Program-made: the position numbers and the translations under genes
Notes under the pieces: generated by a model
The model's database searches: none
Told to the model about the DNA's origin: nothing
The model's input: only the letters and a program-made list of their open reading frames with translations
From: a virus
UHGV virus genome: UHGV-0212824
Strand: one strand, 5' to 3'
DNA length: 5,993 nt
Shown: piece after piece, positions 1-5,993 of the stretch
Layout: every line of letters starts with the position of its first letter
Position numbering within the stretch: the stretch's first letter is position 1

Positions 1-3
1 ATA

Positions 4-89
4 GCAACTCTGTTGCGTGCGTCAGGGATAGTAGGCGAGTATCGGAGCGTAGCGGAGATATGTTTGAGCCGGATAGCCCGCCCGGACGC
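4..89 (+). other. GC-rich hairpin cluster, putative single-strand origin (part 2)
   Basis: GCAAC-TCT-GTTGC (4-16). A long imperfect stem GCGTC-A-GGG (19-27) / CCC-G-GACGC (81-89) has the apex TATC-GGA-GC-GTA-GC-GGA-GATA (40-60). Confidence 0.55.
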
Positions 90-103
90 CCAAAATATAA
101 TTA

Positions 104-1102
104 TTAAAATGGACATTCATTTAATGATGTATATTTTTTTGCCTGATTTATTGCCCAATATGTCTCTAATTCTTGCAATGATTTATCTTGTTTTTTCTTT
201 TGCCTTCGTAATCTGTTTAAATATTGTACTTTTTCCCAATCTTTTCGCCTATCTCCATATAATCTTTGTTCTGTCCTTCTTCCTTCTTCTAGTAATTGTA
301 AATAATATTCTTCATCATCCCTGTGTACGGGCTGTCCCATTACATAAATGATTCCTTTTTCTATTTTATCAAGGAATATTAATTCTCTTTCTTCTTCTGT
401 GAATAATTTGTTTCTGTAATATATTGGTAGATTGAGCTTTATACCCGTTCTTGTTCTGTATCTTTCATTTGTTTCACCTTTTTTGTATTTGTGATTTTGA
501 GCGTCTGCTCTTTCTGTATATCCTTTGCCTAGTCCTGATGAGCATAATACTTTTCCTCTAAAATTTTTATGGTCTACATCTACTTTTAGCATATATTTAG
601 TAATGTAATTTATTGTTTTTTCATTTACAAAAAAACCTGTGAATGTGATTCCGTATTTCCAATTATTTGTAATTTTTTCTCCATTTCCTAGCCCCCATAC
701 TATCCCGTGGAGATGTAATCTTTCTGTTTTCTCGTGTCCTAATTCTGTGATAAACCAATGTTTTACGGATTTACCTGTTTGTTTTCGTACTCTTTCTAGG
801 CATAATCTTATTGCTTTTGTTGCTATATCATTATCATTTTCTAAATTGTATTTATTTTTCAATATTGCGTAGTGTTCATCTGTAATTGTTAGTGTTAGGA
901 AATATGCATTTGGTTCTTGTCTTAGTTCCTCATTCATTCTAACTTTCCATGCTCTTTGCTTTTGTTGCCTGCATTCTAGACAGTCTCCACATGCTGCTGT
1001 TACATATTTTAGTCTTTCGTCTGGACATGCCGGAGGCACTCCACCATTTTTTTTGTTTGGTAGATACCTCCGGTTTAGTATGAGTTTTGGGTATAGACAC
1101 AT
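104..1102 (-). CDS. VP4: Replication initiation protein (HUH rolling-circle endonuclease, microvirus VP4 / gpA-like), 332 aa
   Basis: N-terminal MCLYP...CGDCLEC Cys cluster, motif I YFLTLT, motif II ELG...RLHLHGIVW (HUH), motif III YITKY (two Tyr), then SSGLG and LPIYYRNKLF typical of microvirus Reps. Ends in tandem TAA TAA (106-101). Confidence 0.96.
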   Translation of the reverse strand: MCLYPKLILNRRYLPNKKNGGVPPACPDERLKYVTAACGDCLECRQQKQRAWKVRMNEELRQEPNAYFLTLTITDEHYAILKNKYNLENDNDIATKAIRLCLERVRKQTGKSVKHWFITELGHEKTERLHLHGIVWGLGNGEKITNNWKYGITFTGFFVNEKTINYITKYMLKVDVDHKNFRGKVLCSSGLGKGYTERADAQNHKYKKGETNERYRTRTGIKLNLPIYYRNKLFTEEERELIFLDKIEKGIIYVMGQPVHRDDEEYYLQLLEEGRRTEQRLYGDRRKDWEKVQYLNRLRRQKKKQDKSLQELETYWAINQAKKYTSLNECPF

Positions 1103-1103
1103 A

Positions 1104-2168
1104 TTATTCTATTCCTCTTGTTACTGTTTGTTTTATTGATTTTGAGCCGATTTCTTGTCCTTTGGCGTCAAACATTTCTTCAAGTCTTCCGGTTACCTCT
1201 GTTATTGTTTTAGGTGCTCCTCTCATTACCCAGTTGAGAATTTCTCCGCTTATCTCTTTTCCTGCGTGGATTCCTTCATAGATCCAGTCTTTGATAAGTT
1301 CACGGTCTTTTCTGTCTAGGTCTTTCATTCCCATCATTAGCTCGTTGGCAATTCTGTCACTTTCGTTTGAAACTGATTTTTCTCCTATTGCTACATTAGC
1401 CCACCCTAGTGCAATTTGTCCTTTGAGGTAGTTTATTTGTTCGCTGTTGAGTTTTTGTCTTGTGATTGATTCAACGCCAGCTTGCATAAGATTAAAATTT
1501 TCTAGAGCCGCTCTATGTACCATAGCTTCTTTGGTTTTTTCTGCTACGTCTGATTTTACAATTTGTTCACGTAATTCTTCCCAGACTTTCTTCTCTTGCG
1601 CTTGTACGTAGAAATATTCTGCGGCTGTTTTTTGTTCTTGCGCGTTTGTTAGTCTTTCAATACTGTCTTGTAATTTCGTTATTCTTTTATTAAAATCGCT
1701 TTGGGATTCTAACATTTCCGCTTCTTTTTCGGCTACTTTGGTGTCTGCTCCTGCCGTCTTTTCTGCTTCGACTCTGTTTTTTTCTGCTTGTGATTTATTT
1801 AATTCTACTTGACTTGCTAGGTTTGCTAGTTCTAGTCCCATTCCTTGCATGGCTATAGCTGTTTGCATTCCTTTAGCATCACTTAGTCCTACCCCACTTG
1901 CTTGACCTGCCCCTGACGAGCTTCCTCCTTGTCCTCCCATTCCGTAAATCAGAGCTGGATTAAGTCCTGCGTCTTTCATTTTTCTTACTTGGTTTGGAAA
2001 TGAGGTATAATTCCACATATCCTTTGCTAGTCCTTGATTGTATTGAGCTTGCTGTTGATTTAGTTTTGCTTGAAGCTCCATCATCTCTCTTTGGTCGTCG
2101 TTTTGTTTTTTTCGACCTATTAGGCTTCCGGCTAGTCCTATGCCTGCTCCTATTATAGCTCCTATCAT
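1104..2168 (-). CDS. VP2: DNA pilot protein (minor capsid protein VP2 / gpH-like), 354 aa
   Basis: Gly/Ala-rich hydrophobic N-terminus (MIGAIIGAGIGLAGSLIG), Q/N-rich segment, AGLNPALIYG followed by a G/S-rich linker, long Ala/Glu/Lys/Gln coiled-coil-like region. Lies directly upstream of Rep. Confidence 0.92.
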   Translation of the reverse strand: MIGAIIGAGIGLAGSLIGRKKQNDDQREMMELQAKLNQQQAQYNQGLAKDMWNYTSFPNQVRKMKDAGLNPALIYGMGGQGGSSSGAGQASGVGLSDAKGMQTAIAMQGMGLELANLASQVELNKSQAEKNRVEAEKTAGADTKVAEKEAEMLESQSDFNKRITKLQDSIERLTNAQEQKTAAEYFYVQAQEKKVWEELREQIVKSDVAEKTKEAMVHRAALENFNLMQAGVESITRQKLNSEQINYLKGQIALGWANVAIGEKSVSNESDRIANELMMGMKDLDRKDRELIKDWIYEGIHAGKEISGEILNWVMRGAPKTITEVTGRLEEMFDAKGQEIGSKSIKQTVTRGIE

Positions 2169-2198
2169 ATTTTAAATAATTTAATTTTACAAATTTCG

Positions 2199-2253
2199 CG
2201 CTTTTTTAGAAAGCGTCTTTCCAATTACTTGATAATATATTGTACGTGCGTAC
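2199..2253 (+). other. Putative double-strand origin of rolling-circle replication (predicted nick between G2231 and A2232)
   Basis: Intergenic TCTTTCCAATTACTTG|ATAATA resembles the pC194 (TCTTTCTTATCTTG|ATAATA) and phiX174 (CAACTTG|ATA) nick sites. Flanked by hairpin CGCTTT/AAAGCG (2199-2215) and inverted repeat GTACG-TG-CGTAC (2242-2253). Confidence 0.65.
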
Positions 2254-2343
2254 CTTTAGCAAAAACTTTAAACAAAACTCCCTCCCTCCACCCTTTTTTT
2301 TTTATGACTTTTGTTGTTTTGCGTACTAGGTGCACTACAAGGC

Positions 2344-2367
2344 TTAACGCGAGTTTTCGCTAGTTAA
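2344..2367. repeat. Inverted repeat / hairpin directly after the 102-aa gene
   Basis: TTAAC-GCGA-GTTT-TCGC-TA-GTTAA, 4 nt after the stop codon. No U-tract follows on the coding strand. Confidence 0.45.
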
Positions 2368-2371
2368 CAGT

Positions 2372-2680
2372 TTAGTTTTCACTCGGGCTTCCTCCTTCTG
2401 TTTTTGTCGGCACGTCGTCGGCTGTGATTTGGTTCTTTTTTGCAATTCTTTCCATTTCGATTTTATCGTATGCCTCTATTGCTAAATCAAACCTGTCTGT
2501 CCGGATATTGTATGCTGGTAGTACTCCGTCCTTTTTTTCTGTATAGATAATTGGCGCTGTGTCGGTAATTGGTTCTTTTGTGAGAGTAATTCTCGCTACT
2601 TTTTTTTCAATTGTTTCACCTTCGTAGATGTCTACACTTTGTAGTCTACCGTTATTTGGTATTGCTTTTGAATATTTCAT
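2372..2680 (-). CDS. 102-aa microvirus protein, possible internal scaffolding protein (VP3-like)
   Basis: Starts 11 nt after the VP1 stop behind an A-rich leader. The segment GETIEKKV...PIIYTEKKDGVLPAYNIRTDRFDLA resembles a protein I recall from Bacteroidota microviruses. The scaffolding role is inferred only from size and position between VP1 and VP2. Confidence 0.8.
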   Translation of the reverse strand: MKYSKAIPNNGRLQSVDIYEGETIEKKVARITLTKEPITDTAPIIYTEKKDGVLPAYNIRTDRFDLAIEAYDKIEMERIAKKNQITADDVPTKTEGGSPSEN

Positions 2681-2691
2681 AATTTTTCTTT

Positions 2692-4641
2692 TTATAAGTT
2701 AGGAATTTGTTTTGCACTAATGAGACGTCTAGCTTTAATGTCAAATTTAATTTGTGTCCAAAAGTTCATAGCGTCTAGGTTTGTATCTGCAAATATGTAG
2801 TTATATTTTACAGGGTCTATGTACGTTGTTAAGTCTTCGATATCAAGGTGCCCGTCACTGTTTATTTTTGGACTGTATTGTCTGTTTAGTACCATGAATT
2901 CCTCATCCATTCCTGTTGCGAAGTTTCCGAATGTTCGGTTTACATTTGTCATGTAGTTAATCCATGCTACTGTTTTACCTACTGATGTTTGATTGATTTC
3001 CTCCTTTTCATTCCAGTAATCAGCCCACCATGCTCTCTCCCCGTTGATACTATCTTGGTATCCGATTCCGTCGAGTGCTGGTTTATGTAAATCATCCATT
3101 GTTTTTAGTTCTGCATCCCAGTCATTCCCCTGTGAATAATCGATTCTTGGAGTGATTGATGTTATACACATAATATATCCCGGCTCTGTTACCTTGATTT
3201 TAATGTGTCCGCCTCTTTGTTTGTTTGTTGTTATGCCTCTGCCTGCAAGTGTTCCTAATGGTTCGTTTTCTGATGCAGAGTTACTGATAACTTCTTGAAA
3301 TACAATTTCTTGGCTTGTTCCTCCTTCGAATATCGGAGTTTCACATCTTTCGAAGTAGTTGCTTCCTGTGTATACGGTTTCTAGCCAGTCTCTGTACGTT
3401 CCTCCACTTACCACAATTCTGTTTAGCATATTGTAAACTTTTTGTGCTAAGTTTAGTGCGTCCATAGATAGTTTGCCGTCTGATACGTCTACTGAGGATA
3501 TTTCATTTACTCCTTGTATTCCTTCAATCCATTCGGTATTGATCCAGTTTTGGAATAGGTCACTGTTGTAAGTTTTTATACATAATCCGTATTGTGGATC
3601 TGTTGTATTTAGTTTGTTGTTGCTCGGTTTTCTTAACCTGAAGTTTTCATATGGTTTTGGCACTTTTAATGTTTGTGATGTTATGTTGAGTTGTGTATTT
3701 CCCGGATATTGGAGTATTAAATCTCTCATTTTATCAATGTTTTCTAACGGGATTGGCTCTAGTGTTGTTCTATTTATTGTTTGTATTGCTCTTATGTACC
3801 AAAATTTACCTTCGGGTATTAGATTGGTTGTGATTTCTATAAAATCACCTTGTACTGTAAAATTACCAATTTCACTTACGGTTAATATTTCGCTTTTTGC
3901 GGTTACTGATCCTTTTGCTACTTTTATTTGTAGTTCATTTTCTTTTATGGTGTTAGGTTTTATTTTAATATTGGCTGAATTGTTTACTCTTCCTACGTTA
4001 CTAGGTATTACGTTTGGATTTACTGCTTCTCCGTTAATTGTAATATCTAAATCTTCCGTATTTCCGATAATGTAAAAGTTGTCTTCTTGCGTGTTTGCAT
4101 AGTAGTTTTTGAATATATCGTAATACATTAGTGTTGGTACTCCGTTTTTGTATACGTTTTTTGTTGATGTTTTAGATGTTATAGATCCGTAACCTTTTAT
4201 TCCTAGGTATGCTAGTAAACAGCTAGGATTTACTTGCGTCCATTGGTCTTCAGTTGTTGGTTGGTCGTAATTTCTATTTAATCCTACCCATATTTGAGGT
4301 AATTTGATTTGGCTCATGTCTAGTCCGATTTTTGTTCGGTTGTTATGTAGCCAGCTGTTATACAATCTTAATGCTCCAAAATATAGATGGTTTTCTAGTT
4401 TGAAGCCCCCGAATAGTGGTCCTACTGTTGGGTGAGTAAGTACATTTGCTTCTATGTCAATATCGATGACGTCCCCTTTTTGTACAAGTAATTTCATTGT
4501 AGGTACGAGTGTTCCTGGACTCATTGAAGTTCTGGTAATTGTACTTAGATCATGTGTTGACATGTTATAGTCATGCATGTATACTTGCATTTTGTTGTTG
4601 TCACCTATGGTATTTTTACCAATGTTTTTATTTATTCCCAT
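2692..4641 (-). CDS. VP1: Major capsid protein (microvirus VP1 / gpF family), 649 aa
   Basis: N-terminal HDLS...SMSPGTLVP...GD...THPTVGPLFG, DIFKNYY, central YNSDLFQNW, RIVVSGGTYRDWL, PIFEGG, EPGYIMCITSITPRIDYSQG, DLHKPALDGIGYQ, and C-terminal ISAKQIPNL; these follow the microvirus capsid motif order. Confidence 0.97.
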   Translation of the reverse strand: MGINKNIGKNTIGDNNKMQVYMHDYNMSTHDLSTITRTSMSPGTLVPTMKLLVQKGDVIDIDIEANVLTHPTVGPLFGGFKLENHLYFGALRLYNSWLHNNRTKIGLDMSQIKLPQIWVGLNRNYDQPTTEDQWTQVNPSCLLAYLGIKGYGSITSKTSTKNVYKNGVPTLMYYDIFKNYYANTQEDNFYIIGNTEDLDITINGEAVNPNVIPSNVGRVNNSANIKIKPNTIKENELQIKVAKGSVTAKSEILTVSEIGNFTVQGDFIEITTNLIPEGKFWYIRAIQTINRTTLEPIPLENIDKMRDLILQYPGNTQLNITSQTLKVPKPYENFRLRKPSNNKLNTTDPQYGLCIKTYNSDLFQNWINTEWIEGIQGVNEISSVDVSDGKLSMDALNLAQKVYNMLNRIVVSGGTYRDWLETVYTGSNYFERCETPIFEGGTSQEIVFQEVISNSASENEPLGTLAGRGITTNKQRGGHIKIKVTEPGYIMCITSITPRIDYSQGNDWDAELKTMDDLHKPALDGIGYQDSINGERAWWADYWNEKEEINQTSVGKTVAWINYMTNVNRTFGNFATGMDEEFMVLNRQYSPKINSDGHLDIEDLTTYIDPVKYNYIFADTNLDAMNFWTQIKFDIKARRLISAKQIPNL

Positions 4642-4642
4642 A

Positions 4643-4888
4643 TTACTTTTCCTCCGTATTTAAAGTTTTTTTACTGATTTCATTTTTTTTATTGAATTCG
4701 TCCGCCTCTTTAAGAGCGTAAACCATTGCTGCCATTAAATTCCAATCTGTTTGATTGATTCTTTCTTCCGCTGCTTCCCGTGAAGGAAATTTTTCTTCCG
4801 TTGCTAAATGATTTCCAATTGTAATCATATATTCCTTTCCTTCTATGTCAGCTGGTCTGACAATAAATGCTTCACTTAAGCTTTTCAT
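4643..4888 (-). CDS. Hypothetical protein, 81 aa
   Basis: Co-oriented and tightly packed (TAA-T-ATG junction with VP1; 6 nt after the previous stop). Globular-looking sequence (YMITIGNHLATEEKF...DWNLMAAMV). Function unknown. Confidence 0.8.
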   Translation of the reverse strand: MKSLSEAFIVRPADIEGKEYMITIGNHLATEEKFPSREAAEERINQTDWNLMAAMVYALKEADEFNKKNEISKKTLNTEEK

Positions 4889-4894
4889 AATTTT

Positions 4895-5098
4895 TTACTT
4901 TTTAGGATTAATATTAATTTTTGTACTGTCAATACTTGATGTTGACGTTTGCTCGGTTCTTTGTGAAGCATTATTATTATTTTTTGCTACACTCAAACTC
5001 ATTGTACAACTTTGCACACATAGTGTTGTGATTATTGCTATGATTGCTGTTGAAATTGCTCGGATAATTTCTACCCATTGTTCTTTGGTTATTTTCAT
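4895..5098 (-). CDS. Small putative lipoprotein / membrane protein, 67 aa
   Basis: Short charged N-region, hydrophobic helix (IIRAISTAIIAIITTLCV), lipobox-like V-Q-S-C31 and a polar S/T/N-rich tail. Starts 2 nt after the upstream stop. Confidence 0.8.
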   Translation of the reverse strand: MKITKEQWVEIIRAISTAIIAIITTLCVQSCTMSLSVAKNNNNASQRTEQTSTSSIDSTKININPKK

Positions 5099-5100
5099 GT

Positions 5101-5355
5101 TTAGAATAATTTAAGTTGTTTATGATTCCATTTTTTTAAATTTTCTTCATCATTGTCATAAATTTTTTCTATTATTAACCTCCTTTCTTTTTTATTTAAT
5201 TTGTATTCTTTAATTATCGTATCTTCGAATACTTCGAATCCTTTAGTACATTCGTTTGGTCTCATATTAAACCATGCAAATGTTTTGAACGCCTTAAATG
5301 TATTAAATTCCTTGTTTAGTATTATCCATTTTGTTTTTCTTTTCGTTTTTTTCAT
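5101..5355 (-). CDS. Basic hypothetical protein, 84 aa, with C-terminal QLKLF motif
   Basis: Co-oriented, and its stop is 2 nt before the next ATG. Overlaps the upstream ORF by 53 nt, so the exact start is less certain. Confidence 0.72.
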   Translation of the reverse strand: MKKTKRKTKWIILNKEFNTFKAFKTFAWFNMRPNECTKGFEVFEDTIIKEYKLNKKERRLIIEKIYDNDEENLKKWNHKQLKLF

Positions 5356-5542
5356 TTTCGTTAGGATATAATTTCCATGTTTCTACTACTGCTATTATTT
5401 GCTCTCCTTCAATTTCTTGCATGAGTGCTTTTGCTACTGTTACTGCTACTTTGTAGGTGTGTACTCCCGGTAACTCTTTCACACAGATGTGCCATGTCGG
5501 GTTGTCTCCTGTTGTGATTACACTGAATTTTGTTGCTGCCAT
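5303..5542 (-). CDS. Hypothetical protein, 79 aa
   Basis: ATG 2 nt after the upstream TAA (TAA-TT-ATG). Mixed alpha/beta-looking core and a low-complexity K/N/E tail in the overlap region. Confidence 0.72.
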   Translation of the reverse strand: MAATKFSVITTGDNPTWHICVKELPGVHTYKVAVTVAKALMQEIEGEQIIAVVETWKLYPNENEKNEKKNKMDNTKQGI

Positions 5543-5544
5543 AA

Positions 5545-5682
5545 TTATTTATTGATTTTAATGATTAATAATGCTAATATTTCTATTAGTGATTTTAATT
5601 CTTTTTTGTTTAATTCTTTTGCATACTTTAGTTTGTATTTCCAAAGTAAGTTTTCTAGTTCTTTTAATTCTTCTTGTGTCAT
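5545..5682 (-). CDS. Small helical hypothetical protein, 45 aa (MTQEELKELE...LLIIKINK); start re-assigned from 5739 to 5682
   Basis: The ATG at 5682 follows AAGGAGGT and lies just downstream of the predicted promoter. The longer start at 5739 overlaps the -33 box itself and would not be transcribed from this promoter. Confidence 0.65.
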   Translation of the reverse strand: MTQEELKELENLLWKYKLKYAKELNKKELKSLIEILALLIIKINK

Positions 5683-5686
5683 ATTT

Positions 5687-5694
5687 ACCTCCTT
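5687..5694 (-). promoter_or_regulatory. Shine-Dalgarno-like sequence AAGGAGGT
   Basis: The - strand reads AAAAAAAAGGAGGTAAAT-ATG(5682). Confidence 0.5.
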
Positions 5695-5709
5695 TTTTTT
5701 ATTACATTG

Positions 5710-5740
5710 CAAATATACGTGTTTTTTTTGATTCTGCAAA
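5710..5740 (-). promoter_or_regulatory. Bacteroidota primary-sigma promoter (-33 TTTG / -7 TAnnTTTG)
   Basis: The - strand reads TTTG (5740-5737), a 19-nt spacer, then TATATTTG (5717-5710). This is an exact fit to the Bacteroides consensus TTTG-N19-21-TAnnTTTG, placed just ahead of the first gene of the unidirectional gene array. Confidence 0.85.
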
Positions 5741-5809
5741 ATTCCTTGTTACTTTTAACATTTATTTAACACACTGCATAGTAAGGATGCGCGCCGTTTG
5801 AGCGCCGAT

Positions 5810-5988
5810 GGAGCAATAGAGGGCGCGTAGCCCTCCTTAGCGTCTAGCTCCTTAATATCGCCGAAGGCGCACACCACGGCTTTAGCCGGGTGCACGCCCT
5901 CATATAAATCTGTTCCTTAAGGAAACTGTCCGTTATTCTTTCACTGTCAATCCTCCCCTATAAACACCTAAACCCTGCGCGGAGCGCA
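5810..5988 (+). other. GC-rich hairpin cluster, putative single-strand origin (part 1; continues at 4-89 if circular)
   Basis: GAGGGC/GCCCTC (5819-5835), CGCC-GAA-GGCG (5859-5869), CACC-A-CGGC-TTTA-GCCG-GGTG (5872-5892), palindrome TTCCTTAAGGAA (5913-5924), TGCGC-GGA-GCGCA (5976-5988), and TAGCGT at 5838-5843. Confidence 0.55.
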
Positions 5989-5993
5989 AATTA

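Follow-up and report, generated by a model that had tools for sequence, protein, structure and literature searches.

Which of its two DNA strands does a microvirus place in the virion? Microviruses rank with the most common phages of the gut and the environment, and knowledge of their replication comes mostly from phiX174, in which the packaged strand is coding-sense, an arrangement assumed to hold throughout the Microviridae. The question is raised by UHGV-0212824, a complete circular microvirus genome of 5993 nt (here called the window, that is, the whole stretch of DNA at its full length), in which the recognised genes and the small open reading frames (ORFs) are all on the - strand, as the initial annotation had it. 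The same annotation had proposed that this phage packages the antisense strand, and comparative evidence supports the proposal through a conserved antisense motif, the opposite skew of relatives with a sense motif, mirror-image mutation spectra and hairpins. Judging from these comparisons, we consider it likely that the window carries a phiX174-like origin in antisense orientation, which the initiator VP4 is predicted to nick on the + strand at G2231/A2232, and that the antisense strand is the one packaged.

We know of no case of negative-sense packaging in the Microviridae. Our literature search, with supplements and most subscription journals outside its range, found no report of negative-sense or origin-inverted microviruses, and the accessible parts of the following sources do not address virion polarity outside phiX174: PMC9865509, PMC9753089, PMC3091885, PMC7062461, 10.64898/2026.07.25.740675, PMC9810213, PMC8201624, PMC11860568, PMC3394797, PMC9239249, PMC10707117 and PMC6668415.

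A phiX174-like origin motif antisense to the genes

The candidate origin is intergenic, lying between a 102-amino-acid (aa) ORF and VP2, about 60 bases upstream of the latter. It consists of TACTTG/ATA (the slash marks the predicted nick), an AT-rich spacer (2234-2239) and a downstream TGCGTAC element (2247-2253). The initial annotation had singled out positions 2228-2237 as the best intergenic CTTG/ATA match on the + strand; this site proved to be real and longer, extending over 2226-2253. The sequence ACTTGATA occurs a single time in the window, on the + strand at 2227-2234, and not at all on the - strand. It is identical to the origin core of phiX174 (record J02482), which is cleaved at G4305/A4306 (10.64898/2026.07.25.740675), and the phiX174-type layout of ACTTG/ATA core, AT-rich spacer and conserved downstream block is present in the clade motif as well. 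The longer pattern TACTTGATA-N13-GCGTAC has its sole match in the window at 2226-2253, even when 3 mismatches are permitted; since this site and its relatives were used to build it, conservation gives the pattern its weight, not the window alone.

CTTGATA also occurs on the - strand at 367-373 (in VP4) and at about 2841-2847 (in VP1), sites that the initial annotation had itself named as possible evidence against antisense packaging. Both lie inside coding sequence, and they were rejected as nick sites because they are not conserved: their contexts recur in only 3/106 and 1/106 dereplicated clade genomes, respectively.

Conservation of the motif across the clade

A motif profile was built from 80 dereplicated clade genomes, chosen by a pattern fixing both blocks. 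The consensus reads TACTTG/ATA, five A/T-only bases and then TGCGTAC 13 bases past the core; the five spacer positions are A/T only although the selecting pattern had left them free. Among loci selected by VP1 or VP4 similarity, the motif was antisense in 57/58, with 29 recognised by the simple pattern and 28 of the remaining 29 by the profile, some with variant cores. The sole miss is a 2-kb piece, the other part of which has the motif. A strand-blind scan of viral contigs added 119 new loci, and all 62 that carried a microvirus gene were antisense (62/62, not dereplicated); the remainder comprised 43 stubs without flanks and 14 loci without a microvirus gene. When loci held out from an earlier profile were scored with it, the motif was antisense in 60/77 metagenome loci and 4/5 genome loci, and none was sense-only. 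The hold-out loci without a motif (16 from metagenomes and 1 from a genome) are, from ORF maps inspected by eye, partial contigs missing or cutting the gap. Scoring of 29 relatives and the window by the profile revealed no good sense-strand site, the best scores being -14 or lower.

One hold-out metagenome locus showed both orientations and is a fold-back contig (L641:1-10494), with the motif at positions 1537 and 8958, which mirror each other; it is likely an artefact of amplification or assembly. Lack of conservation of the + strand motif in related genomes was another outcome that, according to the initial annotation, would speak against its proposal; the motif is in fact found clade-wide and is antisense in all but this contig. 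Assembly inversion was rejected as a cause within the clade because too many independent contigs are involved, the fold-back being counted apart.

Several departures from the usual core were observed. A paired change from ACTTGATA to AGTTCATA or AGTCCATA (C..G to G..C) was seen in L031-L037, L690, L691, L703 and L705, at three or more points of both the VP4 and VP1 trees, and may concern the base pair that closes a two-base loop in the VP4-bound single strand. In the prophage of Dysgonomonas macrotermitis DSM 27370, the motif (L627:9424) reads CTTGGTA, not CTTGATA, which may be a sign that the prophage is defective; the prophage of Dysgonomonas sp. 521 has the canonical motif. Several relatives have further antisense stem-loops in their small-ORF region, with CTTGATA in or beside the loop (L006:1037, L010:2231, L012:2313, L016:5957, L024:1314, L027:5857 and L030:3354); these are possibly extra or relic nick sites.

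Relatives with the motif on the coding strand

More distant Bacteroidetes-type microviruses, such as Dulem virus 219, provide a natural control, as they carry a homologous motif in the same gap, between a ~105-aa ORF and VP2, on the coding strand. A broader pattern was applied to 42 loci, 36 of them with microvirus genes, of which 25 were sense, 5 antisense and 6 without the motif; the 25 sense loci represent 15 genomes once dereplicated. Five of the eight GenBank relatives sampled gave no clear profile match, and one of these five matched the broader pattern. On the VP1 tree, the antisense clade forms a single branch (Shimodaira-Hasegawa-like approximate likelihood ratio test, 100) that falls within the sense lineages; branches are long, which leaves the exact sister groups unsure. 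The likely history is a single inversion of the origin at the root of the clade, within the gap that precedes VP2.

Base composition and mutation spectra

The initial annotation had also argued from the T-richness of the + strand. The richness itself is real (T 2627, A 1244) and uniform along the genome; it is not diagnostic alone, being a weak guide because sense-motif gokushoviruses reach a coding-strand AT skew of +0.30. The silent-site skew, defined as the coding-strand (A-T)/(A+T) at four-fold silent sites, follows the motif. It amounted to +0.67 in the window, to a median of +0.65 in the clade (80 genomes) and to -0.65 in phiX174, and ranged from -0.39 to -0.82 in the sense-motif Bacteroidetes-type relatives. 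As a control, 24 Bacteroidota chromosomal loci were drawn from a genome motif scan (120 loci, none with a microvirus gene match). Their skew stayed near 0, between -0.19 and +0.20, and host codon preference therefore fails to explain the skew of the clade.

Strand bias in single-stranded DNA viruses has been discussed before (PMC9810213). As a mutation spectrum based on singletons was underpowered, we polarised four-fold-site substitutions in 103 clade triplets and 43 triplets of sense-motif gokushoviruses, with outgroups shared among triplets. On the coding strand of the clade, G>A (0.33) exceeded C>T (0.17) and C>A (0.11) exceeded G>T (0.03). The sense-motif gokushoviruses had C>T at 0.17 vs. 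G>A at 0.11, and G>T at 0.12 vs. C>A at 0.06, so that the two spectra are mirror images. The lesions expected in unpaired DNA are C>T and G>T, and the clade spectrum therefore points to the + strand as the long-lived single strand in the clade; exposure of the coding strand by transcription would predict the opposite spectrum.

Inverted origin-like motifs among gokushoviruses

EC6098 and Chp2 have the intergenic TACTTGAT hairpin motif on the coding strand. Scanning both strands alike for CTTGAT-N13-15-TGACACC, we scored 79 loci, namely, 54 sense, 8 antisense and 17 without microvirus genes. The AT skew ranged from -0.31 to +0.30 in the sense loci and from +0.31 to +0.41 in the antisense loci. 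The antisense gokushoviruses are scattered over 5 places on a tree of 116 rows and over 3 on one of 41 rows, and on the larger tree, by reading, every antisense lineage is skewed higher at silent sites than its sense neighbours. One pair of collinear gokushoviruses (L249:3004-3048 vs. L243:2177-2219) differs by a 45-nt origin cassette inverted in place, with a silent-site skew of +0.09 in L249 vs. -0.86 in L243. The reversal may have happened recently or may be an artefact of a single contig; the skew of L249 is intermediate, as though the flip were recent.

No gokushovirus-type origin motif was found in the cultured phage phiMH2K (L062) or its close relatives L264-L272; the coding strand of phiMH2K is A-rich, with a silent-site skew of +0.31, and CTTGAT occurs antisense only. 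SpV4 has an origin-like TACTTGTTATAATAT site on the coding strand (L059:523) that resembles the gokushovirus motif.

Hairpins, a GC-rich island and a second origin-like element

Four GNA-triloop hairpins, all on the + strand, had been listed in the initial annotation. With a perfect stem of at least 4, we obtained 5 on the + and 4 on the - strand, so that neither the count nor the general one-sidedness was reproduced, although the C-G-closed subset is indeed one-sided, with 3 on the + strand (1028-1038 inside VP4, 5859-5869 and 5976-5988) and 0 on the - strand. Non-coding C-GNA-G hairpins were antisense in 51 cases vs. sense in 7 across 106 clade genomes, and sense in 33 vs. antisense in 8 across 143 sense-motif gokushoviruses; in these two large groups, they track the strand of the motif.

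A GC-rich multi-hairpin island spans the circular junction (5785-90) and is likely the priming site for the second strand. BLAST matches to the island came from 56 loci, every one of them belonging to the antisense-origin clade and matching in antisense orientation. Its folding energy (z of -1.7 on + and -2.35 on -) did not pick a strand. Inside the island, a second origin-like element (5850-5877) is antisense in 33/106 clade genomes and sense in 0; G stands at the nick position in 32/33, and A replaces it in the window. A small hairpin just 5' of the origin motif (2199-2215) has stems that are altered in relatives yet still paired, and it could serve the origin or VP2 translation.

Predicted replication and the weight of the evidence

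The indirect evidence for the clade points opposite to coding-sense packaging. In the replication scheme that we propose, VP4 would nick the + strand at G2231/A2232, and rolling-circle synthesis would proceed in the direction of increasing coordinates, with the + strand displaced and packaged. As this strand would be the template for transcription, which runs toward lower coordinates, the fork would meet RNA polymerase head-on if the nick is on +. By analogy, the incoming + strand would be primed at the GC-rich island, and second-strand synthesis on the incoming genome would be co-directional with transcription. Beyond the window, we think it probable that polarity is a switchable trait of the Microviridae, with several flips of a short origin cassette having given rise to one large clade associated with Bacteroidales and to a number of gokushovirus lineages, all of which package negative-sense DNA and have replication meet transcription head-on, and with polarity readable from origin orientation together with silent-site skew.

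Several observations weigh against antisense packaging. The core is variable, with ACTAG, ACTCG and AGTTC among its forms, and its covariation with the VP4 tree as opposed to the VP1 tree gave no discrimination (10 changes each). Sense-motif gokushoviruses reach a silent-site skew of +0.61, and skew alone therefore does not give polarity; phiMH2K combines an A-rich coding strand with no origin motif found. Spectrum and skew are not independent, the triplets share outgroups, and the sense side of the spectrum comes from gokushoviruses only, whose motif is itself an inferred origin for which we found no publication testing it. A formal independent-pairs test on the smaller gokushovirus tree yielded only 4 pairs, none opposed, with a median p of 0.25. 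Finally, the hairpin asymmetry is uninformative in the sense-motif Bacteroidetes-type genomes (1 vs. 1, 15 genomes) and in the antisense gokushoviruses (1 sense, 0 antisense, 12 genomes).

Some of these points would suit an orientation-free protein-binding site on double-stranded DNA (an operator, a promoter element or a recombination site), with the true nick on the coding strand of an ordinary positive-sense microvirus whose coding strand happens to be A-rich. Upstream of VP2, the motif is in a plausible regulatory place, its core varies at positions fixed in phiX174, and some sense-motif gokushoviruses are A-rich too. We nevertheless regard this explanation as unlikely, as the profile scores (<= -14) and the rare recurrence of the sense sites (3/106 and 1/106) leave no conserved coding-strand alternative, and a promoter would not appear reversed at the same place in relatives. 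Such a site also makes no prediction of a joint flip of skew and spectrum, and the silent sites of the hosts are unskewed. In three chromosome-embedded copies, the motif lies mid-prophage and not at the border. A XerCD dif-like or att site was likewise rejected, because the motif lies within the prophage, flanked by the small ORF and VP2, in 3/3 of these copies; the dif-like attachment sites of BMV prophages are at the prophage borders (PMC3091885).

Polarity might also be inverted with 5850-5877 as the nick site, leaving 2226-2253 to packaging, termination or priming. Relatives read CTTGAT-N16-ACCAC at the second element, in the register of the phiX174 origin and always antisense (33/106, 0 sense); its absence from about two-thirds of the clade, the A at the nick-position G of the window and the near universality of the 2226-2253 motif make this arrangement very unlikely. 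Packaging of both strands, or mainly double-stranded replication with mixed polarity, seems more improbable still, because a strong, uniform, one-sided skew and an asymmetric spectrum fit one long-lived single strand and the origin-like motifs are on one strand only. We retain the antisense origin at 2226-2253, with packaging of the + strand, as the preferred explanation.

Genes, features and host

The coordinates of the features are collected in Table 1. Circularity follows from the window end joining the start in the relative L003 and in contigs from 4/4 runs. VP4 has the motifs I (FLTLT at 68), II (HLH at 130) and III (YITKY at 166) expected of a Microviridae HUH initiator with motifs I, II and YxxKY, as defined elsewhere (PMC6668415). 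The DNA pilot protein (H/VP2) is present, as is the capsid protein F/VP1, for which the best 60 of 618 tblastn hits were all microvirus-type records. Together with the small circular genome and its one-strand genes, the capsid, initiator and pilot proteins make the window a member of the Microviridae. The 102-aa ORF, at the place where relatives have an ORF of similar size (~105 aa), had no match in Pfam or PHROG, nor had the five small ORFs at 4643-5739 any family match in these databases; this small-ORF region of the - strand varies among close relatives. Rfam gave no match, and generic promoter and terminator scans of the window stayed at chance level.

Table 1. Features of the window UHGV-0212824
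Feature	Position	Strand	Basis or remark
VP4, HUH rolling-circle replication initiator, 332 aa	104..1102	-	PHROG 942, E 1e-28; Pfam PF23343
VP2, DNA pilot protein, 354 aa	1104..2168	-	PHROG 8689, E 1e-16
Conserved small hairpin immediately 5' of the origin motif	2199..2215	+	Fold; alignment of 8 relatives, read by eye
Predicted viral-strand origin, TACTTG/ATA, AT-rich spacer, TGCGTAC	2226..2253	+	Antisense to all genes
102-aa ORF between VP1 and the origin motif	2372..2680	-	Resembles a scaffold protein (VP3) in size and position alone
VP1, major capsid protein, 649 aa	2692..4641	-	PHROG 514, E 2e-36; Pfam PF02305, E 3e-7, above cut-off
Five small ORFs (81, 67, 84, 79 and 64 aa)	4643..5739	-	ORF list
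Bacteroidota-type promoter match, TTTG-N19-TATATTTG	5710..5740	-	At the head of the gene array
GC-rich multi-hairpin island	5785..5993, across the circular junction to ~90	+	Candidate complementary-strand origin
Second origin-like element, CCTT(G/A)ATATCG, C-GAA-G hairpin, ACCAC	5850..5877	+	Inside the GC-rich island; phiX174 origin register; conservation profile

A pattern that we take to be the Bacteroidota-type promoter consensus has 2 matches in the window, by themselves no more than chance; across the clade, non-coding matches are on the coding strand in 42/106 genomes vs. the other strand in 3/106. A genome search with the single VP1 protein returned nothing, and an alignment search returned 5 loci. 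Clade members with VP1 proteins 43-53% identical are embedded in contigs of Dysgonomonas sp. 521, of D. macrotermitis DSM 27370 and of one Phocaeicola metagenome-assembled genome. Given these contigs, and given the promoter match of Bacteroidota type that heads its gene array, a Bacteroidales host is likely for the window phage.

Significance

If a widespread clade does pack the antisense strand, positive-sense polarity is no rule of the family. Naturally occurring pairs that share an origin in opposite orientations would then be at hand for testing whether a head-on encounter of replication and transcription has consequences in a 6-kb replicon and which strand accumulates single-strand damage. 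The motif is a candidate origin for Bacteroidales microviruses, usable in phagemid-type tools, and its orientation is relevant to strand-specific probes and the design of single-strand libraries. Named strains with clade prophages make polarity directly testable.

Comparison with known systems

A close known system is the 30-nt viral-strand origin and protein A of phiX174 (Bullavirinae), with which the window shares the ACTTG/ATA core, the AT-rich spacer, a conserved downstream block, a two-tyrosine HUH initiator and the location of the motif on the T-rich strand. The phiX174 origin, however, lies within gene A on the coding strand, whereas that of the window is intergenic and antisense and has TGCGTAC as its downstream block. 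The Gokushovirinae (EC6098, Chp2) have the same core in an intergenic position, with a second block, TGACACC, ~14 nt downstream in EC6098, and a minority of their genomes are antisense with the same A-rich coding strand. They differ in that the motif, the origin role of which is inferred, is sense in EC6098, Chp2 and 54/62 scanned genomes and is placed in a long stem-loop that the window lacks.

The Bacteroidetes microviruses (Alpavirinae/BMV prophages; Family 5 of Kirchberger 2022) resemble the window in Bacteroidales hosts, a genome of ~6 kb and a long VP1. A Bacteroidota host, a feature of the Alpavirinae/BMV group, is found for clade members and is likely for the window itself. In BMVs, Rep is immediately upstream of the capsid gene (PMC3091885), a feature absent from the window, where the order is VP1-ORF-origin-VP2-VP4; because of this difference, the window phage is not filed as a classical BMV-type alpavirus. 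In relatives such as Dulem virus 219, the corresponding gap holds the homologous motif in sense orientation, as opposed to antisense in the window, and Dulem virus 219 has Rep directly upstream of the capsid gene, as in BMVs. Outside the phages, anelloviruses and some parvoviruses package the strand complementary to mRNA. Such negative-sense viruses of eukaryotes are like the window in the polarity that we propose for it, but they are unrelated to microviruses.

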